Shown here: in pieces, positions 1 to 64,000 of the stretch
Layout: the number at the start of each line of letters is the position of its first letter
Numbering within the stretch: position 1 is the stretch's first letter
DNA from: Parcubacteria group bacterium
GTDB lineage: Bacteria; Patescibacteriota; Minisyncoccia; UBA6257; Colwellbacteraceae
DNA length: 64,000 bases
Reading direction: 5' to 3'
Assembly: GCA_041649615.1 (NCBI GenBank)
Contig: JBAZMT010000003.1
Coordinates: 1,297 to 65,296, forward strand
Made by a program: the position numbers and the translations under genes
The notes under the pieces: model-generated
Told to the model about the DNA's origin: nothing
The model's input: only the letters and a program-made list of their open reading frames with translations
Database searches by the model: none

Positions 1-186
1 AAGCTCGGTCATGGACACGTGCTTCCGATTGCTGGGTTAGAGAGACGCGGACCAGATGGGCGATGGGCTTCGGCCGGAGGGCTTCGGTCACATCAAGCGA
101 AGGCTGAAGATTGGGAAGTCTTCGAAGAGAAGGCATGAAGGACAGTCAAACGTTCTAAGCGAATCCTATCGAGTCGGCGGTACTGA

Positions 187-3100
187 ATGTCCAAGATCGT
201 CCCCAACATACTACGAAACCTGATCACTGGTTCGTTCATGCCGTATGCTTATTATACGGGATCGAACGTCAAGGACATCACGACAGGTGACTTGTGTTGG
301 ATGTATTCCAACTCTGGACAGACGACTTCGTATCTGCGCACGCAACAAGGACAAGACATAGCTCCAGCGCAGGTTGCAACGGGACCAGGCCTTTACGTCG
401 TTGCATCGGCTCAGGACAGTTCTGGGAACATCCACTTCTTGTGCGAGTACGGTGGAGGGTTCTGTTACGCAAGAGCAACGATCACGCGGTCTGGTGGCCA
501 CATTACAGGATGGTCTGTCACCGACCCGTTCTACTTGCCGGCGATGACGTCTTCGCTAGGTGGCACACCATGGGGCGGCACAATTGCGATCATCAAAAAC
601 GGCAATGGTACCGAACGAGTGATGATCGTTCGGCTCGATGGAAGTGATACGACTCAATACTGTGCGGCATTGATTCATGCTCCACTCGATGCAGATGCCG
701 AATCGGACTTCGTTTCTCTTGCAGGTGTTGCGTCTACTTGGACGAAGGCCCCGACTCAGACTGCTTCGACTAACGTCGATGCTCCGTATTGCTTCAACGT
801 AGCGATTGAGCAACTTGGAACCAGCGCTAGCACGAACGGGAACTTCTTCGTCGTCGCTGGAGCGTCGTCTCGAGGTGACGTTGCCAACTATGCGTGCTCC
901 GTCGTTGGGTTCCGTGCGGTTGCTAGTGGCACGACATGGACGCTTGAAACTGGCACTCCGCGCACTCTTGCAGCAGAAAGCTACGAGTCGTTCTGTCTGC
1001 ATTCGTGCAAGGATGCTGATGGGAATGCCTATTTCGGATGGTGCACCCGAGCAACGGATTCGGCAGTTGTCACGTTTGGATTGTCGAAGGTGGCCGTAGA
1101 TGGAACCTTCACTCAGTCGTGGCTATCGTCGACATCGAGTGCTCAAGGTGAGTTGTCGATGTTCCCTGCCGTCTGCGATGACGGCACGGTGATTCTAGGG
1201 ATGGTTCCTGGTGACGTTGGTAGCTCGACCACGGAACAGGAAGTTCGTGTCTACTCAGGAGGCAATTGGTACACGTATCGAGCGGGAACGAACAAGTGGG
1301 TTGCCGCCACAGATCTAGGATGGGCGAACACTGGTTCCAGAGGTTGGAACAACGGCATCATTCTGTCGTGGGGATCTGGGAACACCGGTATCTTCGCCAA
1401 CGGCTCTTTCCACGTTCGTACCGGCAGTGAGACGGGCGTTCTCTACGAGAACTGGTCATGGCCAGTCTATTCAGGTACGGCAACTCTTTCGCCAACGTAC
1501 GCTCCAGCAGTCCCGCATTCAACTCGGGACATGCATATCTGTGTCGCGATACAGAAGAGCACGTCGGCGAGCGGTGGGACTATCACGTTCCCATCAGGTT
1601 GGACCGGACGAGGCGAAATCCTAGGCGCTGGAGGGTACGCTTCTCAAGCTGTCGACACTGGCAATGTTGATGTTTCGATCGCAACCAAGGATTCAGTAGA
1701 CGGTACTGAATCAGGTTCGATCAATGTCACTCTTGGGTCGTACAATACTGCCGGCGGTTTGATGATTCGGGCTACGAAGGCCGGCGATGGAACGTGGTCT
1801 TACGCTTCGGTTACTGGCAGCGATATCACTTCTGGTGCGGCTCTTTCGGTCACTTACACTTCGGCGATCGATCTAGCTCCAGGCGACTTGCTTGTGATTG
1901 CATGGGGTCAACCGACAGATGTCACGACTCCGAAGCAACTCACTGGTCAGGCAATTTCGGCGACTGGAATCACGTTTGGTGAAGTGACTCAACTGGCCGA
2001 GTTCGATTCGGCAACGGGCAACGATCTAGGCGGATCTGTATGGGTCTGTAGAGTGCTCTCTGGTTCCGGTACTGTCACACCGACGTTCACGGCAACGGCT
2101 TCAGGCACGACGACCAACGTCCGCGGTGGATCGGTTCTGTTGAGATTGAGAGAGGTCTCTTCAACGACAGAATCGTTGGCTTCTCAGTCTGTAGGCATCA
2201 CGAGCATTTCTGCAAACATCAGCGTGACTCGTGAAGTCAATTCGGTTAGCAACGGTTCTTCAGCTGTCAGTAGTGCGATCAACGTTTCGACTGCTGTCAC
2301 TTCGGTAGCTGGGACTAGTAGCGGAACCTCAGTTGTAAGCGGACCAGGACTCAGAATTCGAACTCGTCTTGGATCTAGTGTTGCAGGCTCTTCCACCGTT
2401 GCAGGTGGAGTCTCAAGAAAGAGAGGCGTCCTTGGAAGCAGCACTGGCACATCTGGTGTCGTAAGCAACGTCTCAAGGAAGAGAGGCGTCCTTGGAAGCA
2501 GCACTGGCACTTCTAGCGTTGGAAGTAGTGTTTCAAGGAAGAGAGGCGTCCTTGGAAATAGCGATGGCGTTTCTTCTGTCGGTAGTTCGATCAACGTTTC
2601 GACTGCTTCTACTTCTGTCAGCGGAACTAGCAACGGAACCTCGGTTGTAAGTGGAACCGGTCTTGGAATTCGAACTCGTCTTGGATCTAGTGTTACTGGT
2701 ACCGCAGGCGTAGGAGGCAATGTCTCAAGGCGGAGAGGTGTCGTTGGGACGAGCAACGGGTCATCGATTGTTCAAGGATCGTTGATGATTCGTACGTCAA
2801 TTGCCAGTCTCATATCAGGATCGTCTCTAACCGATATCGACTTGAATGTTCTCAAAGCCGCGATCGGTTCTTCGTCAAGCTCTTCTCTAGTGAACGGTGA
2901 AACCCTAATCACTAGAGGCATGATTGTCGAAATTGAAGCCTCTTCAACTATCAACGGTTCGATAGGAGTGTTCAAGCGACTTCAGTCTACGATCGCCGGT
3001 GTCGCTTCGGTAGTAGCTAGCTTCGACGCAGACGTCGCTGGAACTTCGAACGGTGTCGCATCAGTACTTGGCGGGCTCATTGTAGTTCGGTCTGTCAATG

Positions 3101-3537: not shown

Positions 3538-4556
3538 CTGACATCATCAAGCTTGGAGACACGGTAGTCGTCTACGGTACGTTGCTAGTCAACGACACAC
3601 CAACTGATCCAACCTCTCTTCGTCTCGAGATTCAAGATCCAGCTGGGACGTTGACTGAGTACGTTTGGACGGTAGATGCCGAAGTTGTGCGCGATAGCGT
3701 TGGTTCGTTCCATTACAACTTGATGGTGACGCAGAACGGAAACTGGATCTACAGATGGTTCAGCAACGGCGCGCTCACCGCGTTCGAAACTGGAACGATC
3801 GAAGTTGCGAACACGGTTGTCATTCAAACCGTCAGCAATGCAGTTCCGTCTGTTGCAGTGCCGTTCGTCACGTTCCGTATCTGGGACGGTGATGGAGCTA
3901 TTGTCGACACCGGATTTGATCCCCAACGAACCGACGCGAACGGCTCACTCTCAATTGCGTTGCCAGATGGTTCGTACCGACTGTCATCGACCAAGTTGAA
4001 TTGGATCTTCGACGTTCTCTACTTCGACATCTCTACGACACCGACTACTGTGCAACTCATCGGGCGCCCGATGGAAACTCGATGGCTGCAATGGGAAGAC
4101 CTCGAATCGATCGTGGATGTGGCCACAATCGACAGGCTCTTCAACGACAAGAATACGGCGATCCGTGACATGGTGCTCACCGAGCAGGTAATTCAGCAAG
4201 CCGAGACTCTTGCCGAAAGCCAGTTGCTTCGAAGTTGGACGCAGCAACAGATCGTGGACCTTGCCGCTCATGACCCCGCGCTTCGAGCTCAAGCGGCATG
4301 GCTCGCGCTGGAAGCCGCGTCTGAGCGCCGGCAAGAGTTCATCGCCGCTGATGGGAAGGGTCGGTATTGGGCGCAATACGAACGCTCGATGGCCTACTTC
4401 AAAGACCTGAGCAAGAGCAAGAGCCAGAGCCGCGGCGAAGAAACGGCCGGTCATGGTTCGAATGCCGGTGGTTCGTTGCGCCCAGCATTGCGACCGCGGC
4501 AAGCTCGGCGCATCTTCGCTGACGAGCCCGATGGAAGCGGGCATGGTGGCTTCTAA
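3534..4556 (+). CDS. hypothetical protein (structural module)
   Basis: 340-aa ORF; its start overlaps the upstream stop (ATGA); protein-like composition. Confidence 0.55.
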   Translation: MTDIIKLGDTVVVYGTLLVNDTPTDPTSLRLEIQDPAGTLTEYVWTVDAEVVRDSVGSFHYNLMVTQNGNWIYRWFSNGALTAFETGTIEVANTVVIQTVSNAVPSVAVPFVTFRIWDGDGAIVDTGFDPQRTDANGSLSIALPDGSYRLSSTKLNWIFDVLYFDISTTPTTVQLIGRPMETRWLQWEDLESIVDVATIDRLFNDKNTAIRDMVLTEQVIQQAETLAESQLLRSWTQQQIVDLAAHDPALRAQAAWLALEAASERRQEFIAADGKGRYWAQYERSMAYFKDLSKSKSQSRGEETAGHGSNAGGSLRPALRPRQARRIFADEPDGSGHGGF

Positions 4557-6447: not shown

Positions 6448-7980
6448 ATGTCTCTACCTCTCGCAGTTAGCCCAAGCGTTCTGACGCCGGGGCTCTACCT
6501 CAAAGTCAACCTGCTCGCGGGAGCCGGCTCGGTAAGCTCGGCTATCTTACGAGTCCTGTTGATGGCTTCGAAGTCGTCGACCGGTACCCTCACCAATGAC
6601 ACCGAGGTTCGAGTCGGTGGGGGCGAAGACTCGGCTGGAATTGCCTACGGTGTCGGCACTCCCGGGCATCTCGCAGCGAAGCAACTCTACAAGGCGTATC
6701 CAAGCGCCGTCGTAGACTTCGTGTCGCCAGCGCCAGGGTCTGGCGTTGCTACCACGACCATCACGGTGAGCGGCGCTCCAACGGCGAACACCGGTATCGA
6801 AGTCACCGCCAAGGGGTTGATCTTCGACGTTGGATGGCTCGTTGGCGAAACGCCCGACAACGTACGTGACAAGATCATTGTCGCCATCAATAGCCGTACT
6901 GAACGCCTTCCGTTCGTTGCGTCGATCGGTGGAACTGGGATTGTCACTTGCACGTTCAAGACGGCAGGGCGTGTCGGCAACGATTGCAAGATCCGTTGCC
7001 GATTGACGGTTCCGCAGACGGGCACCGAAGCCGTTCTGCCGACCACGATGACGAACTTCTCTGGCGGCTCTACCGACGCGGACTTCACGAACGCGATGGA
7101 TGCTGCTCAGGGGCGTGAGTACCACTTCATCGTTCCTTGCATCAGCAATACCGACGCGTGCACGACTTCAAGTTCGAGCAACGTTGAACGTCTGTTGGCT
7201 CACATCCAACAATTCAACGAGGGCATCGACGCGAAGCTTCAGTCGATCGTTTACGCGAGCACTTCGAGTCAAGCGCTTGCTGAAGCGGCCGCTGTCGCGC
7301 GGAACGTTGGCTACTGTCAGCACGTTCTTTGCGTCAACGGTGGGTCGTTGCCTTGCGAGTTTGCGGCTGCCGAAGCCGGTGACCGTTTGGCGGCCATCAG
7401 TCTCGATCCAGCGGCGAACCGTATCGGGAACATCATCGGGAACGAACTCTACGGTTCTGCCGATGTCACCACCGACAAGCCAACACCTTCGCAGACCGAA
7501 AGCGCCATCGGCAACGGTGTCTCGATCATCAGCTACGACATGGCGGAGAACCTCCTTGCGGTTCGCCCCGTCACTACGTACTCGCAGAACTCGGCGGGTG
7601 GCCCCGATCGTCGGTTGCTCGACACCCAGAACGTCGACGCAACCTACATCATCGCACGCGACCTTCGCTCCTCCATCCCTGCGGAGTTCCCCAATGCCAA
7701 GATCCAGAAGGACTCGGCACCCGGGGCAGACCCCGCTCCGGCAGGAGTCATCGAAGAGCGCGACGTCAAGACGTTCGTCATCTCGCGATTGCGGGCATGG
7801 CAACGGGGCGGCGTCGTGCTCCAGTCCGCGCTGGATGCAGCCATTGCTGACGGTTCGTTGGCTGTCGAAGTCAACGCGAACGACCCGTCGCAAGTCGACA
7901 TCCTCGTTCCACTCCAAATCATCCCGCCTCTGGCCAAGTTCGGCGTCGTGGTCAACCGCGAGCCCGTCACTGTCACCTAA
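6448..7980 (+). CDS. putative contractile tail sheath protein
   Basis: 510-aa protein immediately upstream of a 125-aa tube-like protein, a chaperone-size ORF and the tape measure gene (canonical myovirus order). No diagnostic motif was recognised; the call rests on size and synteny. Confidence 0.5.
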   Translation: MSLPLAVSPSVLTPGLYLKVNLLAGAGSVSSAILRVLLMASKSSTGTLTNDTEVRVGGGEDSAGIAYGVGTPGHLAAKQLYKAYPSAVVDFVSPAPGSGVATTTITVSGAPTANTGIEVTAKGLIFDVGWLVGETPDNVRDKIIVAINSRTERLPFVASIGGTGIVTCTFKTAGRVGNDCKIRCRLTVPQTGTEAVLPTTMTNFSGGSTDADFTNAMDAAQGREYHFIVPCISNTDACTTSSSSNVERLLAHIQQFNEGIDAKLQSIVYASTSSQALAEAAAVARNVGYCQHVLCVNGGSLPCEFAAAEAGDRLAAISLDPAANRIGNIIGNELYGSADVTTDKPTPSQTESAIGNGVSIISYDMAENLLAVRPVTTYSQNSAGGPDRRLLDTQNVDATYIIARDLRSSIPAEFPNAKIQKDSAPGADPAPAGVIEERDVKTFVISRLRAWQRGGVVLQSALDAAIADGSLAVEVNANDPSQVDILVPLQIIPPLAKFGVVVNREPVTVT

Positions 7981-9095: not shown

Positions 9096-11102
9096 ATGGC
9101 AGTCAGGGAAGCAGCAATCCGCGTCAACATGAAGGCGCAAGGCTTCCTGAGTGGCCTTCGCCAGTTGCTTCGAGACGCTGACACGACAGCCAGAAAGATG
9201 GGTACCTCGTTCAAGAACGCGGTCGGCCCATCTTTTCGTGAGGGCATCAAAAAGTCGAAAGACGCCCTGAAAGATCTGGGCTCGGGCGTCAAAGAGAACA
9301 TGAAGAACGTCGCGACGCTCGGCGGCGCGATTGGTACCGGTGCATTGATCAACAATGCAATGCAACTTCAGGAGCTCTACGGGCAGGTTGCCTTCCAGCT
9401 CGAACGCTCGACAAGCAAAGCTCATTCGTTAGCCGAGGTTCAGAATTACGTTACGAGTTCGGCGCGCAAGACCAAGCGCACGCATGAAGAACTCGGCAAC
9501 GCGATGGCAGTGATGCTTGATCGTGGTGCTGACCCAACCTTCGCAATCCAAAGCCTCGAAGCCGTTGGTCACGTGATGAACGTGACAGGCAAGGAAAGCG
9601 AAAAGGTCGGGCGCTTGATGGCAGGCATGCAGATCAAGTATGGTCTCAATGCGAAGCAAGCGGCCGCGATGATGGACGAAGTGCTTGTCGCGCAAAGTGC
9701 GGGCAAGCTCTCCATGGAAGAGTACATGGAGGACTTCAACGAGTTCGGTTCTGTCGCAAAGACCGCGGGTCTTGGTGGAACCAAGGGGCTCCAGTTCATG
9801 CTGAGCATGATCACCAAGATGGGGCCAGCGCTCAACGGTTCAACGGGAGAAGTCAGCGCGGGCTTGGACATCCTGTTCGAGCGCTTGCGCGATGTGGGCA
9901 TCGTCGAGAACATCTTCAAGACGGCCGCCCCGAGCGTGAAGTTCGACAAGAAGCAATTCGTCGCGCTGGACAACGCTGTCGACCAGCTCGAGTTCATGGC
10001 CAAGGCTGGTCCAAAGGTATTGGCCGCGTTCAAGGAAAGCTTCACGGGTCGCGAAGAGACAGCTGCTATCGAAGCGATGATGGGGTCTTACTTCAAGACC
10101 TACAATGAGCAGATCGGAAAGGGCGTCAAGGCCACCCAAGCCCATCTCGATGCGATGGAAGACTTGCGGCTCGACTTCCGCGACATGACGCAACCGGTAG
10201 CCGATCAAGGCAAGGTCATCGAGCAGAGCGCCAAGATTCAGGAAACCGGCTCGGCCAAGGTCCGAAGCGCGATGAACATCCTGAGCGAGGCAATGACGAA
10301 GCCTCAGATGCTCGAAGCGATCGACAGCCTTGCGACGAACATGCCTACGCTCGCCTCGGGGTTTGCCAAGCTGATCGAATTCGTGGTGAAGCACCCATTG
10401 CTCGCAGCCGGCGGGTTCGCAGCCGGTAAGGTTGGGCTTTCTTTTGCCGGTGGGGCGCTCAGCAACGCCGGAGCACAGATCGGCAAAGCCGCGGCCAAGA
10501 GCATCGCGACGCAGGCCGTGGCGATGGGGCCATGGAAGACGGCAGGGGCCGCCCTAGGCATCGCCGCGGTCGCTTACCTGGCCTATAAGGGCGGTGAGGC
10601 GCTCATCGACTCGATGTATGAAGCCCGGGCCAAGGAGCACGGAGCGGCCGTTGGCGCCGAAGCATCCGCGTTCGCAACGGCAGGCGGAACCGACATGATG
10701 AAGAAGGAGCAGGAGCTCCAAGGCATCAGGGCTCAGCTTGCCAAGGCCAAGGAAGAGCAGTCGAGCGTCGGTGGTATGGCTTCGGACATGGCCAATTCGC
10801 TCTTCGCAGCCCTCGCTGGAGCAGGGGCAGCCGTAGGGCTCAACGACGACGTAGGGTACTCGGACACCCGTGCCGACAGCATCGCCAAGCTCGAAGCCGC
10901 TGAGCGAGAGCTCACGGCCAGTATCGACAAGCAAAAGCAGAGCACTCAAGGCGTCGCAACCGGTGGGGACAAGGCTGCTCAGGCTTTGAACGATGCAAGC
11001 GTTGCCGCGTCCAACTTCGCCAAGGCGATGCGAGATGCCGGCGGAGATGGGCTTGCACGGCCACAGAACACAGGACCAGGCTTCTTATTCAGCCAGGGGT
11101 GA
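9096..11102 (+). CDS. tail tape measure protein
   Basis: 668 aa, Ala/Gly/Met-rich alpha-helical composition, AAGGAG RBS, followed by the baseplate genes. Confidence 0.65.
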   Translation: MAVREAAIRVNMKAQGFLSGLRQLLRDADTTARKMGTSFKNAVGPSFREGIKKSKDALKDLGSGVKENMKNVATLGGAIGTGALINNAMQLQELYGQVAFQLERSTSKAHSLAEVQNYVTSSARKTKRTHEELGNAMAVMLDRGADPTFAIQSLEAVGHVMNVTGKESEKVGRLMAGMQIKYGLNAKQAAAMMDEVLVAQSAGKLSMEEYMEDFNEFGSVAKTAGLGGTKGLQFMLSMITKMGPALNGSTGEVSAGLDILFERLRDVGIVENIFKTAAPSVKFDKKQFVALDNAVDQLEFMAKAGPKVLAAFKESFTGREETAAIEAMMGSYFKTYNEQIGKGVKATQAHLDAMEDLRLDFRDMTQPVADQGKVIEQSAKIQETGSAKVRSAMNILSEAMTKPQMLEAIDSLATNMPTLASGFAKLIEFVVKHPLLAAGGFAAGKVGLSFAGGALSNAGAQIGKAAAKSIATQAVAMGPWKTAGAALGIAAVAYLAYKGGEALIDSMYEARAKEHGAAVGAEASAFATAGGTDMMKKEQELQGIRAQLAKAKEEQSSVGGMASDMANSLFAALAGAGAAVGLNDDVGYSDTRADSIAKLEAAERELTASIDKQKQSTQGVATGGDKAAQALNDASVAASNFAKAMRDAGGDGLARPQNTGPGFLFSQG

Positions 11103-11136: not shown

Positions 11137-12069
11137 ATGACAGTCTTCGAGCAGTATCCCGTCGCCAGTTGGAAGGTCGGCAGCCTCCCTGAGCTGAAGT
11201 TCCCTGTCTCAGGTATCAGCGAGTCGGGTGGGAACCGGCTCGTCGAACGTGAACGTCCCTACCGTGATGGAGCAAAGCTCGACGACACGGGTAGCAAGGC
11301 GAAGAAGTGGGGTCTTCGGGTTTGCTTCGACAACGGGATCGAAGAGGAAGGGCTTGACGCGGGCAAGCTCCTCTATCCCGACGTGCTCAACGAGATGATC
11401 GCTAGTTTCGACATTCACGAAACTGGAGACTTGATCGTACCGACTCGAGGGCGTGTTCGAGTGCGGGCTGAGTCGTACCAACGTGAAGAAACCGAAAGCG
11501 AACGTGATGAAGCCGTAGTCACGTTCACGTTCGTCGAAGACAACGAAGACAACGTTGGGGCAAACCAAATCGAGCCGATGTCCATCAATGCCAGCGCGAA
11601 CAGGCTCACCGAGCAGACCGTGTTTAGCGCCACTAGCGAAGGGATGTGGGGCACATCGCTCGCAGATCTAAACGAGTTCGCAGGTGAGCTCGAGGGGCTT
11701 GCGAATTACCCTGGCGACACGCTCGCCAATATCGACAGCCAATGCAGCATCGTAATCGGCGCGGCGAACCGTGTCGGACGGGCCTTCACTCGAGAGAGCG
11801 AAGAGAACCGCAACATGCTCAACGATCCAGAACTGAGCTTGACGCAACGCAAGCTCGAAGAGACCAAGGACATGGCCGCCCGAGCGCGTGCTGAAGCGTA
11901 CAAGGGGCGGCCGCGGCTCGTTCCGTTCTACGTCACGGGGGATACCGACTTGTTCTCCGTTGCCGCGGCCCTGAGTATCGAAGCCGATGACCTGATCGAG
12001 ATCAATCGAAGCTTCGACCCGTTCTTCGTACCGAAGGGTTCGACGATCAATACTTTGGAGAAGGCATAA
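11137..12069 (+). CDS. Mu N-like DNA circularization / baseplate hub protein
   Basis: N-terminus FPVSGISESGGNRLVERERPYRDGAKLDDTG resembles the Mu gpN pattern (F..V.S.SGGRRV..HEYP.RD...EDLG). Confidence 0.5.
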   Translation: MTVFEQYPVASWKVGSLPELKFPVSGISESGGNRLVERERPYRDGAKLDDTGSKAKKWGLRVCFDNGIEEEGLDAGKLLYPDVLNEMIASFDIHETGDLIVPTRGRVRVRAESYQREETESERDEAVVTFTFVEDNEDNVGANQIEPMSINASANRLTEQTVFSATSEGMWGTSLADLNEFAGELEGLANYPGDTLANIDSQCSIVIGAANRVGRAFTRESEENRNMLNDPELSLTQRKLEETKDMAARARAEAYKGRPRLVPFYVTGDTDLFSVAAALSIEADDLIEINRSFDPFFVPKGSTINTLEKA

Positions 12070-13235
12070 TGGCTCGCGGTCCGAGCTCTACGAACAAGAG
12101 CCGAGGCAACTCGCAACGCTACTTGGACACTGTTCGAATCGAGAGCGAGAACGGCGAGAGCTTCGACATCTTCAATAGTCTGAGCATCGCGAACGACTTC
12201 ATGTCGCCAAGCGAAGCGGCTTTTGAAGTTGGCGACGATGGCACTTGGTCCGAGCTCGAAGACATCACCGGCATGGGGAAGAAGTTCAAGGTCTTCGTCA
12301 ACGACCGGTTGCGTCTTACCGGTCGAGTCGAGTTGAACGACATCCCTGTCGATTCGAGCAACGGGGCAGTGACGCGCTTCACAGTTCGAACGCTAATGGC
12401 CGATGCGATGTACGCTTGCGCCAATCCAAACGTGAAAGTGAAGTCTACTTCGATCAAGGACTTCATCCTGTACCTTTGGGCACCACTCGGCGTCAAAGAA
12501 TCGGATTTCGTCTTCTTGGCAGACGTGAGTCGCAACCTAATGACGGGCAAGTCCAGCGACGGCACGAAGCCGAAGGTCGCGCTGGAAGACCTCAACGAGG
12601 AGCAGGCAAAGGTCAATCCGCCCGAGACCATCTACCAAGCAACGGATCGCCATCTGCAACGGCACGGGTTCATGATCTGGGACGCACCAGACGGCAAGCT
12701 CGTTGTCGGTGCTCCCGACGACAAGCAATCGATCCTCTATCAGTTCCGTATGTTCGGTGAGCCGAGTAGGCGCAACATGAACAACGTTCTGAGCATGCAA
12801 CGGACCAAGGATTGGTCCGGCGTGCCCGGGCTGCTCTACATGGCAGGAACGGGCGGGAACAAGGATTGGACGAAGAGCAAGGTTCGAGGTTTCGTCACGC
12901 AGAACGAGATCGATAAAGCCGGGTTCTACCGCCCCGTTCTGCTCATCAATGAAGGATTGAAGAACGACAAGCTTGCCCAACGGCAAGCCGAGCGTGAGAT
13001 GACCAATCGGTCCAAGCGCTTGGACACTTGGACCATCACCGTCGACGGCCTGAGCTACTTCGACGGAATGGAGCGGTTTCAGTACGCAATCGACACGACA
13101 GCCGAAGTCATCAGTTCGGTTGCAGGTGGTCCGAACGGTGCTTACTTGGTGACACGCGTTCAACTCAATCGAAACGTCAACGAAGGTGATACCGCCGAGC
13201 TGACCTTGCTCAAGCGCGGGCTTTGGAGGTTGTGA
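12069..13235 (+). CDS. baseplate protein (Mu P / P2 gpD late-control-D-like)
   Basis: 388 aa; position after the N-like gene; start overlaps the upstream stop. Confidence 0.4.
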   Translation: MARGPSSTNKSRGNSQRYLDTVRIESENGESFDIFNSLSIANDFMSPSEAAFEVGDDGTWSELEDITGMGKKFKVFVNDRLRLTGRVELNDIPVDSSNGAVTRFTVRTLMADAMYACANPNVKVKSTSIKDFILYLWAPLGVKESDFVFLADVSRNLMTGKSSDGTKPKVALEDLNEEQAKVNPPETIYQATDRHLQRHGFMIWDAPDGKLVVGAPDDKQSILYQFRMFGEPSRRNMNNVLSMQRTKDWSGVPGLLYMAGTGGNKDWTKSKVRGFVTQNEIDKAGFYRPVLLINEGLKNDKLAQRQAEREMTNRSKRLDTWTITVDGLSYFDGMERFQYAIDTTAEVISSVAGGPNGAYLVTRVQLNRNVNEGDTAELTLLKRGLWRL

Positions 13236-14652: not shown

Positions 14653-14760
14653 GTAGGTTCCCCGCGCTGGACCCCTCGCTAGCGCGTCGTTTGGCACCCT
14701 TGGCGGGCCTTTCGGCTTGACACTCTCGAACGATGTTGCTCGGGGTGATAGAGTCACCCC

Positions 14761-35781: not shown

Positions 35782-35825
35782 ACGGGCCAGCGTGCGACCT
35801 CCGCGCTGGCCCGTTGATGATTTCT
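35782..35825 (+). terminator. rho-independent terminator-like hairpin (ACGGGCCAGCG ... CGCTGGCCCGT + TGATGATTTCTATT)
   Basis: 11-bp perfect stem after the stop at 35759. Confidence 0.55.
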
Positions 35826-44922: not shown

Positions 44923-45161
44923 CCAACGAGAAGCGGTTATCGATCGCGCTGGAAAACTGTCTACGGACAATGACGGCGGAACAACTCAAGGCTCTCTGCA
45001 ACGAGCAGATTGACAGCCTTGTCAAGAGCCTTCCGAAAGAAGCGGGCGGCTCAAAGGTGGTGATGGAAGGGCGGTCCCGTGGTAAGGGTACCGCTCAACC
45101 AACGGCTCAAACGAACCTGCCAAAGGTTCGAAAGGCCGTAGGATCATTGGACGTCCGCTAG
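44919..45161 (+). CDS. hypothetical protein
   Basis: 80-aa ORF with ATGA coupling. Confidence 0.35.
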   Translation: MTNEKRLSIALENCLRTMTAEQLKALCNEQIDSLVKSLPKEAGGSKVVMEGRSRGKGTAQPTAQTNLPKVRKAVGSLDVR

Positions 45162-50688: not shown

Positions 50689-52670
50689 TGGATCTCTACC
50701 CTGTCGAACTGAAACTGAAGAACCTCTATTGCTTCAAGGGTGAGCAATCGGTCGCGCTGGAACCAACCGTCTACGCGGTGATTGCTCAGGCCGATGACAA
50801 CCCAGAGAGAAGCAACTGGCTCGGCAAGAGTACGTTCCTTCTCTCGTTCGCCTATGCGTTGTTCGGTTGGCATACGAAGCGAACCGACAACGAGATCATC
50901 ACGACGGGGCAAGACGAATGCTCCGTTGCCTTGCGATTGAACGATGGGACCATCATCGAGCGGTCGAAGGCGAACGGTAAGAGCGAGCAACTCAAGTTCG
51001 TTGCACCTGGCAAGAAGCCGATCACGCAAGCTCAGGCGCAGAAGGCCATCGAGCAACACATCGGTCTCAACAAGGACAACTTCTTCGCGATGCACTTCTT
51101 CGAGCAGAAGCGCATCGGCGCTCTCGTAACGGCAAAGGGTGCCGAGCGGGTGAACATCATTGAAGGGTGGCTCGCCGAAGAGCTTGACCCAATCATGCGG
51201 TTGAACGACGCAGCCGTTCGAGCCCACAAGAAAGCGTCGTTGGAGCTTGCAGACTTGGAGCGTGAACGTGCTGAGCTGAAGGAGGATTGGCGCAAGCTCG
51301 TCATCGACTTGATTGGTACTGAAGACGCAACGGTCGACGTGAAGGCTACGATCGAAGACATGCTCGAGAAGGCCAAGGCCGAGCATGAAGCGAAGAAGCA
51401 AGAGCTAGTCGCCGCTCGCAAGGTAGCAACCGAAGAGGAGATTCAGAAGCGACTCTTGGCAGAGAAGCTCGAGAAGGCTGCCGAGTACGACGCAATCGTT
51501 GCAAGCGGATTGGAAGTTCGAAAGGCGTTCGATCTGATTCCAGCGACGGCTCAGAAGGAGTACGAGGACGCCCAAGCAAGCGCCACATCGGCGAAGACGG
51601 CGTTGGAAAAGTGCGGTGAGAAGCTCAAGATCCTTCAACATGGCTTCTACGTCTTTGATGGGCAATGTCCCATCACTTGCACGGCTTGCCCTTCGAAGTC
51701 GTGGGTCGATAGTAGGGCAACGAGCAAGGAAGTGCTTGATGCTGCGAAGCAAGAACTGGAGAAGGCCAGAACGTCCCACGTCGAGCTGACCAGGACGGCG
51801 ACAGCGAAGAGGGACACCGCACGGGAACGGGCCGCGCTGGAAACCAAGCTGACGGCGCTCCGGGCCAAGGCCGAGCAACTGGCAGACGTCGCTGAAGAGA
51901 TGGAGGGCAAGGAGGAGGAAGCTAAGAAGCCGAGCAAGGCGAACGAACACGTCGCAGCGTTGGAGACTGCCTTGGAGCGGCTCGCCGACAAGGTTCGGCA
52001 ACTCACAGAGGACAAGGCTTGGGCGACCAAGGCTATTGGCAGAGTCTGGGAACTGGAAACCCACATCCATCACGCCAAGGAGAAGCGGGCCCTCATCGTG
52101 GAGGCCGTGCAACTGACGGGGCGAACCGGTGCTCAGCAGGCCATTCAAGAGATCGTGATGACCAAGATAGAAGCCAAAGCCAACGAGCTACTGACGAACG
52201 CCGGCATCCCGCTTCAGATCGACGTCAAATGGGAGCAGGAGACCAGCGGGCTCGCCAAGGTCTGCCCAACGTGCGGCACGGCCTTCCCTACGAGTCAGCG
52301 CGCCAAGGCCTGCGAATCGTGTGGGGCTATTCGGGGGCCCAACATCCAGAGCAAGCTACTCATCGAGCCGACGAACCGTAGCGGAGCGGCTGAGGACCTT
52401 GCGGGTGTTGCCCTCGGCGTTGCTGCGAGCCGTTGGTTGCGCGCTCAGCGCGGGTCAAAGTGGTCGGCGGTCTTCATTGACGAACCGTTCGGCGCTCTCG
52501 ACCCGCACAACCGAACGGCGCTGAGCAGCCATATCGCGTCGATGCTCCGCAACGAGTTCCGCATGGCGTTCGTCGTGGCGCACGAACGGTCTGTGCTGAT
52601 GGCAATGCCTGCTCAACTCAAGATCGGCGCTGGACCAAGCGGTTCGCGCATTGAAGGGACGGTGACGTGA
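50685..52670 (+). CDS. sbcC: SbcC/Rad50-like SMC ATPase
   Basis: N-terminal Walker A NWLGKSTFLL; long coiled coil with a CPITCTACP zinc-hook; C-terminal VFIDEPFGALD D-loop/Walker B. Confidence 0.75.
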   Translation: MMDLYPVELKLKNLYCFKGEQSVALEPTVYAVIAQADDNPERSNWLGKSTFLLSFAYALFGWHTKRTDNEIITTGQDECSVALRLNDGTIIERSKANGKSEQLKFVAPGKKPITQAQAQKAIEQHIGLNKDNFFAMHFFEQKRIGALVTAKGAERVNIIEGWLAEELDPIMRLNDAAVRAHKKASLELADLERERAELKEDWRKLVIDLIGTEDATVDVKATIEDMLEKAKAEHEAKKQELVAARKVATEEEIQKRLLAEKLEKAAEYDAIVASGLEVRKAFDLIPATAQKEYEDAQASATSAKTALEKCGEKLKILQHGFYVFDGQCPITCTACPSKSWVDSRATSKEVLDAAKQELEKARTSHVELTRTATAKRDTARERAALETKLTALRAKAEQLADVAEEMEGKEEEAKKPSKANEHVAALETALERLADKVRQLTEDKAWATKAIGRVWELETHIHHAKEKRALIVEAVQLTGRTGAQQAIQEIVMTKIEAKANELLTNAGIPLQIDVKWEQETSGLAKVCPTCGTAFPTSQRAKACESCGAIRGPNIQSKLLIEPTNRSGAAEDLAGVALGVAASRWLRAQRGSKWSAVFIDEPFGALDPHNRTALSSHIASMLRNEFRMAFVVAHERSVLMAMPAQLKIGAGPSGSRIEGTVT

Positions 52671-53431: not shown

Positions 53432-54352
53432 ATGGCCAGAAAGACCAAGACAGCAAACCCGGCAACGCCCAAGGCAGAGTTCCATAAGATCCACGAGCAA
53501 CTACTTGGGATGAAGATTCCAATTGGGATGCTCGTATTGGACCCGGAGAACGCACGGGATCACAACGAGCAGAACATCGACTCGATCAAGACATCGCTCG
53601 ATGAGTTCGGTCAGCGCAAGTGCATCGTCGTCAAGAAGAGCGACATGACCATCACTGCCGGCAACGGTACGGTGACGGCTGCGAAGCAACTTGGATGGAC
53701 GCACATCGCGGCTCTCATCACCGACGATGACGAGGTAACCGCGGCCGCGTATGCACTCGCCGACAATCGAACCGGTGAGCTCGCGACGTGGAACTACGAT
53801 CGCCTCGTCAAAACGATGTCGAGCTTGCACAAGAACGGGTTCGAGCTCTTGAAGCTAGGTTGGGACGACACCGAGACGCGCATGATGATGCAGCTCGACT
53901 CGTCGGCGTTCAAGGACATGCAACGGCTCAACGTCGATGCGACGCTGAGCAATAGCGTTGTTCGAGAACTCGGTGAGGGGAAGGATTCGAATTGCGACAA
54001 GAACGAGCAGTGGTTCTACTGTGAGTTCTACAAGGACGAAGAGACCTTCAAGCGCCTCAGCGACAAGCTCCGACCGTATCTGCGCACGGAGCACGAGATC
54101 TCGGGCGAGTTCTTCGCACAGATGGTTGATGCGTTCATCGCAGACCATGCGTCTGACTTGCCTCCACCCGTTGCGAATCCCGAACCAGAACCGAAGCCTG
54201 AGCCCAAAGCTAAGGCCGACCCCGCGCTGGACCAGAAGGTGAAGCCGAAGAAGCCAAGCAACGTCGAGAAGAGCGTGAGCGAGCCGGTGAAGACGAAGCG
54301 TAAGTGCACGAAGAAAGGTTGCAAGGACAAGGGTAAGGAGAAGGCTCGATGA
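53432..54352 (+). CDS. ParB-like nuclease-domain protein (DpdB-like?)
   Basis: ParB N-terminal domain pattern LVLDPENARDHNE...IVVKKSDMTITAGNGTVTAAKQLGW; basic, Cys-containing C-terminus. Confidence 0.6.
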   Translation: MARKTKTANPATPKAEFHKIHEQLLGMKIPIGMLVLDPENARDHNEQNIDSIKTSLDEFGQRKCIVVKKSDMTITAGNGTVTAAKQLGWTHIAALITDDDEVTAAAYALADNRTGELATWNYDRLVKTMSSLHKNGFELLKLGWDDTETRMMMQLDSSAFKDMQRLNVDATLSNSVVRELGEGKDSNCDKNEQWFYCEFYKDEETFKRLSDKLRPYLRTEHEISGEFFAQMVDAFIADHASDLPPPVANPEPEPKPEPKAKADPALDQKVKPKKPSNVEKSVSEPVKTKRKCTKKGCKDKGKEKAR

Positions 54353-55887: not shown

Positions 55888-56844
55888 ATGAGAACGATCT
55901 GGCTATTGACCGATACAACGAATGACCCATTGATGGGCGAAAGCCCGTTGAAGCTCGTTCGAGAGTTTCTTCGAGCTAACGGGCACATCACCCGTCTCGA
56001 GGGTGAGCTGACCAATGTTGCAGAGCGCGTCGTCAAGGGCGATGTAGTCTTTGGGGTTGGTTGGGATGAACGGTTGATCGATATCAAACCGCTCATCGAG
56101 AAGGCTGCAATCGAGCGCGAGGCAAAGAAGCGCAAGATCAGCGTCGAAGAAGCCTCGAAGCTCAAAGACATCGAAGTGCCTGAGGTGAAGCTCGTCGCCC
56201 TGCTACCGTGGGGCCCTGCTCAAGCCGAAGGTGTAGCAACCGAGCGTCGGGAGTTCGAAGAGCGCTTGCTTCGCGCGCTGGATGCCGCGCTCGTTCGAAG
56301 TGCAACGGAGAAGACCGGGCTTCTGTGGCAACATCAGATCTTCCACGGCGATGACTTGCACGTCGTTGGAGGGTTCGAGACCATCTTCAACGTGCTCAAC
56401 GTATGCCCGAAGGTCAGTTGGGAAGCGCGAGAGAACCGCATCGTGTTCCCGTATCCTGAGCTGAAGAGCATGGGCTACGACGAGCTCGTCGAATTGGTTG
56501 CCGAGTACTCGGCAAGGTATCCAGCGGATAACCTGAAGCTCATTCCATTGTTCGGGCGCCTATCGTCGAGGGAGCTCTACCTTGCTGAGGTGGCCAAGGC
56601 CAAGGTCATCTTCAGCGGGCGTTCCGTTGGGTGGCCCACCGAGCTCATCGACGCGTCGTTCTTGGGTGTTTACCCGATGACGACCAACGAAGGCATCTTC
56701 AAGGAGATGATCCCCGAAGGCTATCGCTACACGAACCGAGGCAACCGTGTCGATCGCTTGCATGACTTGCTCCATCAGGAAGACGGTTGCCCGATGCTGA
56801 ACTTCGCTTCGGTGTCGTTGCTCGAATTGCTGAAGGCGTTGTGA
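55888..56844 (+). CDS. hypothetical protein (weak TGT/DpdA-like resemblance; speculative)
   Basis: 318 aa; N-terminal LLTDTTND resembles the TGT LTDSGG catalytic block and ELIDASFLG resembles the GVDxFDC block. The match is very weak. Confidence 0.45.
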   Translation: MRTIWLLTDTTNDPLMGESPLKLVREFLRANGHITRLEGELTNVAERVVKGDVVFGVGWDERLIDIKPLIEKAAIEREAKKRKISVEEASKLKDIEVPEVKLVALLPWGPAQAEGVATERREFEERLLRALDAALVRSATEKTGLLWQHQIFHGDDLHVVGGFETIFNVLNVCPKVSWEARENRIVFPYPELKSMGYDELVELVAEYSARYPADNLKLIPLFGRLSSRELYLAEVAKAKVIFSGRSVGWPTELIDASFLGVYPMTTNEGIFKEMIPEGYRYTNRGNRVDRLHDLLHQEDGCPMLNFASVSLLELLKAL

Positions 56845-56845
56845 G

Positions 56846-59896: not shown

Positions 59897-60464
59897 GCTT
59901 CGGCAGCCGCTTCAGCTCCTCTGCGACGAGCTCTTGCACTTCAGCCGGGCTCATGGTGCCGAGCACTTGGAGCGTCGCTTGCTGCAACCGGGCATCTACC
60001 GTGATGTGCGTCTCAGACACGCTCTCGGTGCCTTGGATCTTGCTCAGTTGGCTTTCGAGGTTAGCGACGGCGCCCCATTGGTTCGCACTGCTCGCCTTCA
60101 CGATGTGCTTGTGGATGCGCCGTATTGCCGCGGGCTTGAACAGAGCGGCGTTCTCATCGTGCTCAGCAAGCAATGCCGCTCGAACCTTCTCCTTCATCTT
60201 CTCGATCTCGTCGTCGGTGATGCCGGGGAAGTTGTTCTGCATCAACTCGATGAGCTCGTCGTTGCTCACGCCGTTGCAGATGAGGTCGGTCATCGCCATG
60301 CGGCGAGCCTTGGCTTCCTTCGCCGTCACGGTTCTTGAACCGGTGAGGCCACCGATGCCAGCGAACCGCGCTGGACTGTTCTGATTGTCGAAATCTACGT
60401 TGCTGTCCATGCCGGTAGGATAACCCCATGAATCAGTCAAGACAATGTGCCCACACCTCCGCAC
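59865..60464 (-). CDS. hypothetical protein, the only convincing minus-strand gene in the window
   Basis: Balanced, protein-like composition (EIEKMKEKVRAALLAEHDENAALFKPAAIRRIHKHI), whereas both overlapping + strand ORFs are Arg-rich junk. Start may be the internal ATG at 60410. Confidence 0.5.
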   Translation of the reverse strand: MRRCGHIVLTDSWGYPTGMDSNVDFDNQNSPARFAGIGGLTGSRTVTAKEAKARRMAMTDLICNGVSNDELIELMQNNFPGITDDEIEKMKEKVRAALLAEHDENAALFKPAAIRRIHKHIVKASSANQWGAVANLESQLSKIQGTESVSETHITVDARLQQATLQVLGTMSPAEVQELVAEELKRLPKLTVQVPATDG

Positions 60465-60862
60465 AGACCCCGAAGGAGCACGACGTGACGTGCCCCGAAT
60501 GCGGAGCGAAGATGATCCTTAGGAACAGCCGTTACGGCTGGTTCTACGGTTGCTCGGCGTTCCCGAAGTGCCGAGCCGCTCATGGAGCCCACCCCAACGG
60601 CGAGCCCTTGGGCATACCAGCCGACTCCAAGACGAAGAGATGGAGGATGAAGGCTCACGTCGAATTCGACAAGCTTTGGAAGGGCCCCGACGCCCAGATG
60701 TCCAGGTCGGAAGCCTACCGATGGATGATCGACACCTTGGCCCTTCCAAAGGATGACGCTCACATCGCCAAGTTCAGCACCGAGCAATGTCAGACGCTCA
60801 TTGCCGCGCTGGCGATGCGTGACCAACTAGATGCGATCAACGGAAAGGGAACAGCAAGATGA
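60428..60862 (+). CDS. Zn-ribbon protein
   Basis: CPECGAKM...CSAFPKC topoisomerase-type zinc ribbon; 144 aa. Confidence 0.45.
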   Translation: MNQSRQCAHTSAQTPKEHDVTCPECGAKMILRNSRYGWFYGCSAFPKCRAAHGAHPNGEPLGIPADSKTKRWRMKAHVEFDKLWKGPDAQMSRSEAYRWMIDTLALPKDDAHIAKFSTEQCQTLIAALAMRDQLDAINGKGTAR

Positions 60863-61526: not shown

Positions 61527-62005
61527 TGGCTAGGGTACTGAAGAAGCCAGGTTCTGTTGAGATACCACCATCGCCGTTGACACCTGAAACGACTGGAGAA
61601 GTTCGTCAGGTGTTGGGCATGATGCGACGAAGGGTGCTGAAGGAGAAGGAACACCCGGCGATCGCTCAGTTCTCAGATCCTGAAGCCAAGGCACGGGTCA
61701 AGGAAGCGTTGGCGGTGAATCCAAACCTTCAGCCGACGGCGTTCAGCCATCGACCAGGACGAGAAGGCTGCTTCCTGACTGCCATAGAGTCTTGTCGGGT
61801 ATTGAGCGGGAAGAGCATTCATATCGCGGGGTTCGGGTTCGCAGTCGATGACCGCGCTGGAGACGCGATGTGCTTGAAATGCTACTTGGAACAAGGGCAG
61901 CCGTCACAAGTGCCCGGAAGAGGATTCACGATTGCACTCTTCGAGTCGAAGACTGTTGATCGCGTGTGTGTTTACTGCGGAACAGAGTTCAAGGGAGAAC
62001 GGTAA
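61526..62005 (+). CDS. hypothetical protein
   Basis: 159-aa ORF with a C-terminal CxxC...CxxC cluster. Confidence 0.5.
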   Translation: MARVLKKPGSVEIPPSPLTPETTGEVRQVLGMMRRRVLKEKEHPAIAQFSDPEAKARVKEALAVNPNLQPTAFSHRPGREGCFLTAIESCRVLSGKSIHIAGFGFAVDDRAGDAMCLKCYLEQGQPSQVPGRGFTIALFESKTVDRVCVYCGTEFKGER

Positions 62006-62304: not shown

Positions 62305-62561
62305 GCAAGGAACCACCCAAGGTCTGTGGTGACACTCCTTCAGTGGACGTCACTTGGAAAGTGTTGCTCAACGTTCGACGAGAACCACCGTTGCTTTCGG
62401 TGTCGTACGAAGTCGCAAGGACGGCCTTCAGTGCCTTCCAGAAAGCGAGCCCGAAGTTGGGCAACCCTTCGTTCTCCGGTGTTGTCTGCACGATTGTTGA
62501 GGAACGGCAAGTCTCCGCGCTGGAACCCAAACGAAAGTTGAAGAGGAAGAGAAAGCTATGA
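62301..62561 (+). CDS. hypothetical protein
   Basis: ATGA overlap with the upstream gene; 86 aa. Confidence 0.4.
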   Translation: MSKEPPKVCGDTPSVDVTWKVLLNVRREPPLLSVSYEVARTAFSAFQKASPKLGNPSFSGVVCTIVEERQVSALEPKRKLKRKRKL

Positions 62562-63127
62562 CGATGTTCACAGTGATCTTGGGCATGCTGAACGCACTAC
62601 GACCTTTCTACATGGACGTCGAAAGTGCAGATGCACGAAACGAACGGATGACGGTCATCGCTTTGAGCATTGCTCAGGCAACCGAAGAGGCGACTTGCAC
62701 AGGAGCGTTCGCAAAGGATGGTTGCGTGCCCAAGTTCAAGGGTGAGCCAGAAGAGCTCGCGATGGGGTTGTTCACGATAGGCAAGTTCGAGACTCGATAT
62801 GCCAAGCATGTCCATGAGGACAAGTGTCGTCCATGGGAGTGCGACACCGGGTTGGCCAAGAGTCTGTTCCAGGTTCACGTGTCCAAGACGACGCCTCGAG
62901 AGGTTTGGGTGCGGCTTGGGGGTACTTCTCAAGAGAGTACTTTGCTGTCGGCTAGGGCGGCCGCTGCGTCGTTTTCTTGGGCCTGGCAATGCGGTTCTCT
63001 CGACCGTGCCTTCGCTGGTTACATGACGAGTTATTGCCAAACAATCAAGGCGGGGAAAGAACGGGCGAACGACTACTTGGCGAACCTTAGGAGGTATCGC
63101 CGGTTGATGAAGGGACAGCAAGGATGA
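62558..63127 (+). CDS. hypothetical Cys-rich protein
   Basis: 189-aa ORF. Confidence 0.5.
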   Translation: MTMFTVILGMLNALRPFYMDVESADARNERMTVIALSIAQATEEATCTGAFAKDGCVPKFKGEPEELAMGLFTIGKFETRYAKHVHEDKCRPWECDTGLAKSLFQVHVSKTTPREVWVRLGGTSQESTLLSARAAAASFSWAWQCGSLDRAFAGYMTSYCQTIKAGKERANDYLANLRRYRRLMKGQQG

Positions 63128-64000
63128 AGACGACACACTCGGCAAGGGTACTTGCAGACTCGATTGCGAATGGAGTACGGCTGGTCACAATGGAAGTGAC
63201 CTTCCCTCGCATAATCTTGGCAGAGGTGAACACTCATCGGGTGTTCTCGCGCTGCTCAGCAAGCTCGAGGGCTATCCCAATCGAGAAGATGATCGAACGG
63301 GCAATGACTGACCCGTACGTTCCGAAGCGTTGGCTCACCAATCAACGTGGGATGCAGGGTGGCGAGGAGATACCAGTCAGTGCTCAGCTTGCTGCTCGAA
63401 CTCAATGGCTCATTGCCAGAGATCGTGCAGTCGAGCAGGCGACGGTCTTGAAGGGCTTAGGCATTCACAAGCAATGGGCGAACAGGCTCCTCGAGCCGTT
63501 TCTTTGGCATACTGCCATCATCAGTTCTACCGAGTGGGACAACTTCTTTTTCCAGCGCATCCATCCCGATGCTCACCCTGACATGTTCGAGACTGCGACT
63601 GCGATGGGTGTAGCGATGCGTGAGAGCACGCCTCAGCAATTCCTCAGTGACAGTGAATGGCATCTACCGTTCATTGACAATGCCGACTTCTATTCCCATC
63701 CGGAGTTTCGACGCAACTTCGAATGGAAGAAGGTTAGCGTCGGCAGGTGCGCTCGCATCAGCTACCTGAATCACAACGGCGTTTGTGATGTGTCTGAGGA
63801 CATCGCGCTTCATGATCGCATGATGGAGCACGGGCACATGAGCCCGTACGAGCACGTCGCACGCCCGATGTCGGACAAGGAACTCGAGTTCGGAACCTAT
63901 TGTTGGACGAAGGAGAAGGGCGATTTCATCGCCGCTCCGTTCAAGGGAAACTTCCGAGGGTGGGTTTCTTATAGGAAGGAAATTCAAGGTGAGGAGAACA
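63124..64000 (+). CDS. thyX: flavin-dependent thymidylate synthase ThyX-like (3' end truncated by the window edge)
   Basis: My translation from the ATG at 63124: NTHRVFSRCSASSRA resembles the ThyX RHR-x7-S-x-R motif, and MEHGHMSPYEHVA resembles the conserved GH.S..EH block. No stop codon before position 64000. Confidence 0.5.
   Translation, partial: MKTTHSARVLADSIANGVRLVTMEVTFPRIILAEVNTHRVFSRCSASSRAIPIEKMIERAMTDPYVPKRWLTNQRGMQGGEEIPVSAQLAARTQWLIARDRAVEQATVLKGLGIHKQWANRLLEPFLWHTAIISSTEWDNFFFQRIHPDAHPDMFETATAMGVAMRESTPQQFLSDSEWHLPFIDNADFYSHPEFRRNFEWKKVSVGRCARISYLNHNGVCDVSEDIALHDRMMEHGHMSPYEHVARPMSDKELEFGTYCWTKEKGDFIAAPFKGNFRGWVSYRKEIQGEEN

Follow-up and report, generated by a model that had tools for sequence, protein, structure and literature searches.

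An over-represented, strand-biased octamer in a metagenomic phage genome and its possible role as a Chi-like signal

The stretch of DNA analysed here (the window) is 64 kb out of a 66.7-kb metagenomic contig (JBAZMT010000003.1), its genes, among them those of a contractile tail (sheath at 6448-7980, baseplate), are those of a tailed phage, its G+C content is 58%, and the question that it raises is why one short word, CGCGCTGGA, should recur all along one of its strands. Counted as an exact word, CGCGCTGGA is present 28 times in the window, 26 times on the + strand and twice on the − strand, whereas dinucleotide shuffles yield 1.38 copies on average and never more than 4, both strands counted. 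The initial annotation of this DNA had claimed at least 22 copies on the + strand, a number that is borne out and exceeded, and a single reverse complement at about 15466, where two in fact exist (15467-15475 and 24713-24721). Most of its coordinates are right to 1-2 bases, but three are off by 11-21 bases (22995 for 23014, 29997 for 30018 and 47690 for 47679), the site that it listed at 27208 is an inexact match, TGCGCTGGA, and four true copies (at 16228, 17257, 29206 and 60367) had been left out.

The core of the word is the octamer CGCGCTGG, with 31 copies on the + strand and 4 on the − strand. On the + strand it is followed by A at 26 sites and by C at 5, and by G or T at none of the 31, and it is preceded by C or T at 28 of them, while beyond position −1 to +9 no conservation was seen around the sites when ±40 nucleotides were scanned. 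A longer repeat or mobile mini-element was rejected on this last ground, together with the lack of tandem arrays at the sites and of Rfam matches. CGCGCTGG is the commonest octamer of the window, with a density of 1 per 2.06 kb, and the 9-mer is likewise top-ranked. Variants of CGCGCTGG with one mismatch show no strand bias (37 on the + and 47 on the − strand), from which it follows that all eight positions are needed. The octamer does not switch strand anywhere over the 64 kb, about 89% of its copies lying on one strand, and the check for similar counts on both strands that had been proposed for it thus gave a clearly unequal result; the + strand is also the G-rich strand along the entire window. 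The four − strand copies compare with 2.3 expected from codon shuffling, which is neither enrichment nor depletion, and they are probably due to chance.

This bias bears directly on the idea, put forward in the initial annotation as an alternative, that the word might be an uptake signal. The uptake sequences of Haemophilus (uptake signal sequence, USS) and Neisseria (DNA uptake sequence, DUS) are 9-12 nucleotides long, hundreds-fold enriched, evenly spaced and found in preferred frames in genes, but they are equally frequent on both strands, and they serve the natural transformation of a cell, a process that a phage does not have. An uptake role for the window motif is therefore unlikely.

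As had been claimed, the genes of the window are co-oriented, with + strand open reading frames (ORFs) covering about 95% of it, and most copies of the motif read in frame as Ala-Leu-Asp/Glu: the frame xxC-GCG-CTG-GMx (Ala-Leu-Asp/Glu/Ala) accounts for 23 sites, R-A-G for 4 (among them 61853, the other-frame copy previously placed at 61852) and x-R-W for 2. The sites at 35802 and 60367 are intergenic, as is probably that at 14663, for which the same had been said at 14664. With so many copies in one reading frame, the array might be a by-product of codon, codon-pair or amino-acid usage, or it might be the recognition context of a modification enzyme with no selection on copy number. The tripeptide Ala-Leu-Asp/Glu is indeed about 1.8-fold over-represented, the window has strong general codon-context biases (for example TCGAAG and TTGCTCG, 2-5-fold), and the presence of QueE-like and ParB-like genes may be a sign of a deazaguanine-type modification pathway. 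When the synonymous codons of all genes were shuffled, however, CGCGCTGG was expected 2.5 ± 1.5 times compared to 29 copies in genes (12-fold), and the 9-mer 0.85 times compared to 25 (29-fold), well above the codon-context effects and with z-scores of 17 and 27 respectively, no other 8- or 9-mer standing out as far. Of the Leu codons in the window CTG makes up a minor part (16%), and after GCG it is found almost only in the motif, 24 of the 26 occurrences of the codon pair GCG-CTG being in motif context, so that no single dominant codon pair explains the count. The in-frame GCG-CTG-GA copies are preceded by C in 20 of 21 cases, the base after the octamer is A or C, copies out of frame and between genes share the common orientation, and the spacing of the sites is over-dispersed. 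A modification enzyme alone would not explain over-representation, and no DpdA-like, QueC, QueD, FolE, DNA transglycosylase or methyltransferase gene was found among the window genes; taken by itself, this gene content neither supports nor excludes a modification-enzyme context. Explanation by codons or amino acids is thus largely refuted by the synonymous shuffling and the codon-pair counts, and we regard this whole family of by-product explanations as barely credible. What is left is an exact word of 8-9 nucleotides, maintained by selection at the DNA level on the coding strand of co-oriented genes, and the strand-specific constraint on the DNA that the initial annotation had proposed is supported to that extent, codon artefact being excluded.

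The 31 sites on the + strand are moreover evenly spaced. The gaps between them run from 438 to 4093 bp with a coefficient of variation (CV) of 0.53, compared to 0.97 for random placement, a value that was reached in 0 of 20000 simulations, and the longest stretch free of sites, window ends included, is 4303 bp (P ~0.001). Positions where Ala-Leu-Asp/Glu/Ala is encoded and the motif is not used are no nearer to existing sites than random positions are. The sites tend towards the 3' halves of genes, and 11 of the 31 lie at most 150 nucleotides upstream of the next gene start (17% expected), which, with the sense orientation of all + strand copies in co-oriented genes, speaks for a signal in transcription or messenger RNA, such as a promoter element for the phage's sigma-like protein, an RNA processing site, or a signal on the non-template strand for pausing or antitermination. 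A weak Sigma70 region-2-like ORF at 38475-39317, between the VWA and family-B DNA polymerase (PolB) genes and overlapping the start of the next ORF, points the same way, and because in the marine relative L016 an unambiguous Sigma70_r2 protein is encoded at the equivalent place (7518-8150) this phage group probably carries a sigma factor of its own. On the other side, the sites have no partner element within ±40 nucleotides, no Rfam matches and no fixed short promoter distance, 14 of them lying more than 300 nucleotides from the next start, and several of them mid-gene in genes of 600-870 codons; in addition, in a 58-kb relative described below the + strand sites run on through a stretch of better − strand ORFs, although this is weak evidence. 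We consider a transcriptional or RNA-level role very unlikely.

The same phage was found in independent assemblies (L008, L009 and L011), and further relatives at 73-87% nucleotide identity also carry CGCGCTGG, with a total outside the window of 39 copies on the + strand and 6 on the − strand (+/−: 3/0 in 14 kb of L010, 6/1 in 16 kb of L012, 11/2 in the 24.8-kb composite of L013 and L163, 12/2 in the 47 kb read of the 58-kb IMG/VR contig, 2/1 in the 19-kb L025 contig, 3/0 in 6.3 kb of L161 and 2/0 in 6.2 kb of L162). The exact octamer is kept in 21 of 38 aligned site comparisons, compared to 8.2 expected from background 8-mer identity, and the flanks have diverged. The replication module conserves its sites strongly, whereas the tail module shows no conservation and its sites have been gained and lost. 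A synonymous gain is seen at 32878, where the window has GCG CTG GAT and L013 has GCA TTA GAC (GGG GCA TTA GAC with the codon before), both encoding G-A-L-D. Even spacing recurs in the L013 composite (CV 0.56), and in the 58-kb relative the sites are uneven (CV 1.13, with gaps of 11-14 kb), 7 of them being crowded into 8.4 kb that take in the terminase and Mu-like portal genes and the DNA just upstream. Three + strand copies in this relative stand in a stretch whose better-scoring ORFs are on the − strand, gene calls there being uncertain, and this weakly suggests that the orientation of the motif tracks the DNA and not the mRNA. The stretch (8160-10009 in the reverse complement of L158, the same as 9-1858 of L154) makes up the 2 kb before the terminase gene, has probable − strand ORFs including one for an RHH/TacA/NikA-like (ribbon-helix-helix) protein, and is atypical in its coding, with no frame scoring well.

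A second related phage from the same sample (L010 1-14263, ERZ27247363 k141_1188096), aligned with window positions 1-13523, has a tail module that is 80-89% identical, a replaced fibre-like segment (window ~8.4-11.1 kb) and motif sites that are partly different, which suggests that modules are exchanged within the clade. Only relatives with a PolB identity of at least 71% carry the motif. Of the more distant relatives, which share the gene order, L014 (PolB identity 63%, G+C 0.475), L001 and L002 (PolB identity 45%) and L160 lack it, and it is not enriched in L016, whose G+C content is like that of the window (PolB 59%, G+C 0.587, 1 + and 2 − copies), while the 5 + and 2 − copies in L015 (PolB 66%, G+C 0.67) are explicable by codon usage. 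No convincing comparable oriented word of their own was found in these motif-less relatives, and in the shared replication region no clade-specific gene stands out.

The initial annotation had likened the word to the Chi sequences that protect DNA from recombination nucleases, and our preferred reading, to which we give somewhat less than an even chance, is that CGCGCTGG(A/C) acts as a polar signal of the Chi kind, read by a helicase-nuclease of the host (RecBCD/AddAB type). The analogy holds for all the statistical properties that were compared with Chi-rich phages, the two differences being the even spacing and the phage's own recombination genes. The E. coli phage LLS has 23 Chi sites, 1 per 1.86 kb and 20 of them in the active orientation, P1, also of E. 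coli, has Chi at 1 per 1.9 kb, and in the P. aeruginosa phage MD8 the Pseudomonas Chi GCTGGCGC occurs 32 times, always on the top strand; in Chi-rich phages the sites cluster near the right end and the pattern goes with the lack of a phage recombination module (PMC12315714). In our recount MD8 has 32 + and 0 − copies (CV 1.42) and P1 has 31 and 19 (CV 1.26). As in P1, LLS and MD8, the window word is a non-palindromic octamer, is the commonest octamer of the genome and is not due to codon usage. Its density is like that of LLS and P1 (1 per 1.9-2.1 kb, MD8 being denser at 1 per 1.35 kb), its bias to one strand is like that of LLS and MD8 (87-100%), and it lies on the coding strand of the structural genes as in MD8. 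Sites are gained and lost among relatives, as in Chi-rich phages, and the terminase-side cluster in the 58-kb relative resembles the terminal clustering of Chi in LLS and MD8. The word also shares GCTGG with both the E. coli Chi GCTGGTGG and the Pseudomonas Chi, and it is a circular permutation of the latter. The narrowness of the clade, the absence of the word from syntenic relatives and the lack of a clade-specific gene fit a word dictated by the host better than one dictated by a phage enzyme, and the same is favoured by the tolerance of opposite-strand copies, the GCTGG core, the density of about 1 per 2 kb and the terminase-side cluster.

If the word is Chi-like, it could act as follows. 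The phage would package its DNA by the headful, which the Mu-like portal and Mu-F-like head protein of its relative make probable, and the linear DNA would enter the cell with permuted, terminally redundant ends, double-strand ends also being exposed by replication tails. A processive host helicase-nuclease (of the RecBCD/AddAB/AdnAB type) would load on such an end and degrade inwards until it reached the word from the 3' side, where degradation would halt, and the resulting 3' single-stranded tail could be used by the RecA of the host or of the phage, leading to circularisation or to recombination-dependent replication. One orientation would be enough if the same end were always exposed, and even spacing, with no gap above ~4.3 kb, would place a site near any permuted end before the terminal redundancy was lost.

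Several points weigh against a Chi-like function. The word differs from the known Chi sequences, has no known cognate enzyme and, unlike them, shows a ninth position limited to A or C; CGCGCTGG matches no published Chi or named motif, a literature search with the word and its sub-words gave nothing relevant, and GCTGGTGG and GCTGGCGC themselves each have 0 copies on both strands of the window. The phage has its own RecA, Mre11/Rad50-like proteins and resolvase, whereas abundant Chi in lambdoid phages goes without a recombination module and with sites crowded near the end that enters first, both being statistical and not defining traits. The array is over-dispersed, whereas known phage Chi arrays are clustered (CV 1.26-1.42), and its even spacing is unlike any documented Chi-rich phage. 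Chi is defined by enrichment of the word in the host genome, skewed with replication, and by its recognition by the host helicase-nuclease, with attenuation of the nuclease and loading of RecA, and the searches described below yielded no host. Nor do the 80 unrelated contigs with raised, strand-biased counts that a scan of IMG/VR for two copies 450-480 bp apart returned show that unrelated phages share the signal, most of them being G+C-rich with only a 3-4-fold excess and all of them preselected by their two copies.

A serious rival, which the initial annotation had not considered, is that the word is the recognition site of a site- and strand-specific nickase encoded by the phage and that the packaged DNA has single-strand interruptions at the sites, as in T5, phiKMV-like and tf/LUZ24-like phages. 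The nick motif of phage tf, TACTRTGMC, is a 9-mer with 14 copies on one strand at positions that are conserved among relatives (PMC3517423), and motifs of this type are kept, enriched and on one genome side, across 61 phages of several host species with ~8% BLASTN coverage between members (PMC11780129). Others are WACTRTGAC in the tf/LUZ24/Rembedalsseter group, CGACN5CCTACTCCGG in phiKMV-like phages (PMC3517423, PMC11780129) and the T5 major-nick consensus 5'-R/GCGCRGG-3' (PMC3517423). The window word resembles these in being an exact one-strand word of 7-9 nucleotides, strongly enriched, found inside and outside genes and partly conserved in position, the T5 consensus shares GCGC-N-GG with its C-GCGC-T-GG, and the ParB-like nuclease-fold protein (Table 1) is a candidate nickase. 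But the T5 likeness, a match at 6 of 8 positions in a word rich in G+C, may be coincidental, a scan of window ORFs recognised neither an HNH nor any other nickase, and the window tolerates four opposite-strand copies with no sign of avoidance, where tf has none. The window motif belongs to a narrow clade and is lacking in syntenic relatives whose PolB identity is 45-66%, whereas that of tf runs through a whole family, and nick motifs are unevenly spaced and concentrated on one genome side (14 + and 0 − copies in our recount of tf, CV 0.86, ~1 per 3.3 kb), whereas the window array, read here from assembled sequence, is denser and even. On balance we think it unlikely, if well worth weighing, that the sites are nicked.

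The even spacing, which differs from that of known Chi arrays and nick motifs, would be expected of Okazaki-type priming or another process that uses one site per stretch (~2 kb apart, with CVs of 0.53 here and 0.56 in the L013 composite). It favours an oriented signal read by the phage's own machinery, whether as a start or loading site for lagging-strand priming or for recombination-dependent replication, as a self-mark that halts a phage nuclease or as a guide for a translocase in the manner of the FtsK-orienting polar sequences (KOPS). For forks moving with transcription the G-rich + strand would serve as lagging-strand template, CTG, the initiation triplet of the E. coli DnaG, is part of the word, and the phage encodes DnaB, a DnaG-type primase, PolB, RecA and Mre11/Rad50. 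Yet L014, L015 and L016 have homologous primase, helicase and polymerase genes in the same order without this or a comparable word, known primases read 3-5 nucleotides and not 8-9, a T4-like recombination-dependent mode would send forks both ways, and the uneven sites of the 58-kb relative are hard to square with an obligatory role in replication. As to translocase guides, KOPS (GGGNAGGG, read by FtsK) and the SpoIIIE recognition sequences (SRS) are skewed octamers that are co-oriented with replication and act in one orientation only, but unlike the window motif they belong to chromosomes and change strand at the origin and at dif; KOPS is unbiased in the window (8/9) and no FtsK-like translocase was seen there. 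A signal read by phage machinery is in our view a minority possibility. The particular form in which a virus-owned polar system is read by the phage RecA, Mre11/Rad50, SF2 (superfamily 2) helicase, ParB-like nuclease or primase, its evenly spaced sites seeding recombination-dependent replication or lagging-strand synthesis or else marking self, seems to us rather improbable.

Should the Chi-like reading be right, the enzyme that repairs double-strand breaks in an environmental bacterium would have CGCGCTGG as a candidate regulatory sequence; to our knowledge only a handful of bacterial groups have an established Chi. The word could further serve as a tag linking this uncultured phage clade to its host, which would be found among genomes that have it as their top replication-skewed octamer, and it would mean that the stocking of host Chi, recently found in temperate phages (lambdoid phages and P1), also occurs in a large lytic-type myovirus that encodes a RecA itself. 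Even spacing would then be a new layout, and it predicts permuted ends and a terminal redundancy of at least ~4 kb. If the sites are instead nicks or a signal owned by the phage, the 31 exact sites and the conserved clade would make a very clean new case of a phenomenon that has been without an explained function for ~50 years, and a virus-owned system would amount to a phage-encoded Chi analogue or to a primase system with a long site.

Table 1. Copies of the motif in the window, with reading and conservation in relatives, and phage genes for recombination-type and nuclease-fold proteins
Feature	Position	Strand	Remarks
CGCGCTGGA	4304..4312	+	A-L-E; missing at homologous position in L010, L025, comp58
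CGCGCTGGA	7827..7835	+	A-L-D, tail sheath gene end; kept in L010, comp58
CGCGCTGGA	9962..9970	+	A-L-D; kept in comp58
CGCGCTGGA	12578..12586	+	A-L-E; kept in comp58, one mismatch in L010
CGCGCTGGA	14663..14671	+	probably intergenic, between ORFs 14320-14652 and 14761-15219
CGCGCTGGA	16228..16236	+	P-R-W, baseplate gene
CGCGCTGGA	17257..17265	+	R-A-G
CGCGCTGGC	20918..20926	+	A-L-A
CGCGCTGGA	23014..23022	+	A-L-E
CGCGCTGGA	24154..24162	+	A-L-D
CGCGCTGGC	25455..25463	+	A-L-A
CGCGCTGGA	29206..29214	+	R-A-G, SF2 helicase gene
CGCGCTGGA	30018..30026	+	A-L-D; kept in L161
CGCGCTGGA	32878..32886	+	A-L-D, primase gene; kept in L161, L162
CGCGCTGGA	34273..34281	+	A-L-E; kept in L161
CGCGCTGGC	35802..35810	+	intergenic; exact 8-mer kept in L013 despite diverged flanks
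CGCGCTGGA	36639..36647	+	A-L-E, MoxR-like gene; kept in L013, L162
CGCGCTGGA	38455..38463	+	A-L-D, VWA gene end; kept in L012, L013
CGCGCTGGA	41901..41909	+	A-L-D, PolB gene; absent in L012, L013
CGCGCTGGA	43149..43157	+	A-L-D, PolB gene end; kept in L012, L013
CGCGCTGGA	44945..44953	+	A-L-E; kept in L012, L013
CGCGCTGGC	46978..46986	+	R-A-G, RecA gene; 8-mer kept in L012, L013
CGCGCTGGA	47679..47687	+	A-L-D, RecA gene; kept in L012, absent in L013
CGCGCTGGA	50753..50761	+	A-L-E, SbcC/Rad50-like gene
CGCGCTGGA	51833..51841	+	A-L-E, SbcC/Rad50-like gene; kept in L012
CGCGCTGGA	54223..54231	+	A-L-D, ParB-like gene
CGCGCTGGA	56274..56282	+	A-L-D
CGCGCTGGA	60367..60375	+	intergenic, 61 nt upstream of ORF 60428
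CGCGCTGGC	60805..60813	+	A-L-A
CGCGCTGGA	61853..61861	+	R-A-G
CGCGCTGGA	62516..62524	+	P-R-W
CGCGCTGGC opposite-strand copy	11590..11598	−	probably chance
CGCGCTGGA opposite-strand copy	15467..15475	−	probably chance
CGCGCTGGA opposite-strand copy	24713..24721	−	probably chance
CGCGCTGGC opposite-strand copy	34217..34225	−	48 bp from + site 34273; probably chance
RecA	46645-47856	+	phage-encoded
Mre11/SbcD-like	49587-50309	+	phage-encoded
Rad50/SbcC-like	50685-52670	+	phage-encoded
ParB-like nuclease-fold protein	53432-54352	+	phrog_620 and related 'ParB-like partition nuclease' families
RusA/PDDEXK resolvase	56846-57403	+	phage-encoded

Two of the sites (14663-14679 and 43149-43165), both at gene ends or intergenic, have a 17-nucleotide stretch in common, CGCGCTGGACCCCTCGC. 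An intergenic hairpin at 35786-35814 with a 9-bp stem (GGGCCAGCG ... CGCTGGCCC) overlaps the site at 35802 with its 3' arm.

After the tail module the + strand carries genes for an endolysin, an SF2 helicase, DnaB, a DnaG-type primase, MoxR/VWA proteins and the family-B DNA polymerase, and further genes for RecA, Mre11/SbcD-like, Rad50/SbcC-like, QueE-like, SplB-like radical SAM (S-adenosylmethionine), ParB-like, RusA/PDDEXK resolvase and ThyX-like proteins. The phage is a large, virulent-looking (lytic-type) myovirus. NCBI lists the contig under a metagenome-assembled genome (MAG) of a Parcubacteria group bacterium, where it was most likely placed by faulty binning. Megablast and tblastn searches of cultured phages brought up no close one, the outcome being either no match or an identity of just 21-29%, no tRNA genes came up in the window, and the phage RecA is distant from bacterial RecA and only remotely related to RecA proteins in PDB. 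A scan of GTDB genomes with a PolB profile gave only relatives at 42-46% identity in mutually discordant MAG bins (Armatimonadetes, Planctomycetota and Bifidobacteriaceae, to which the window's own contig adds Parcubacteria).

The composition of the genome, with its abundance of TCGA, of the Leu codons TTG and CTC and of the Arg codon CGA, might aid host assignment. Some coding-strand words are strongly raised in genes compared to codon shuffling (TCGAAG, 124 compared to 57; GCAACG, 94 compared to 39), and others are raised on both strands, unlike the main motif (TTGCTC/GAGCAA, 56/66; TTGCTCGA, 18/10, for example at 5012, 7615 and 13263).

Five adjacent genes at 52667-57403, which could form a DNA modification or repair module, encode the QueE-like radical SAM protein (TIGR04508, E 6e-28), the ParB-like protein (phrog_620), a 510-amino-acid radical SAM protein of the PA0069/Rv2578c kind (SplB-like, 'DNA repair photolyase'), a 318-amino-acid protein of no known kind and the RusA/PDDEXK resolvase; homologues of the SplB/PA0069-like protein are also found in phages without the motif. 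Finally, coding tandem repeats stand at 39448-39580 and 40465-40614, at the two ends of a 507-amino-acid ORF before PolB, made up of Lys/Ala/Glu-rich units of 18/27/45 nucleotides and of an acidic Asp/Glu array of 6/18-nucleotide units, and the unit GCCCCT is repeated 6.8 times at 34361-34401.

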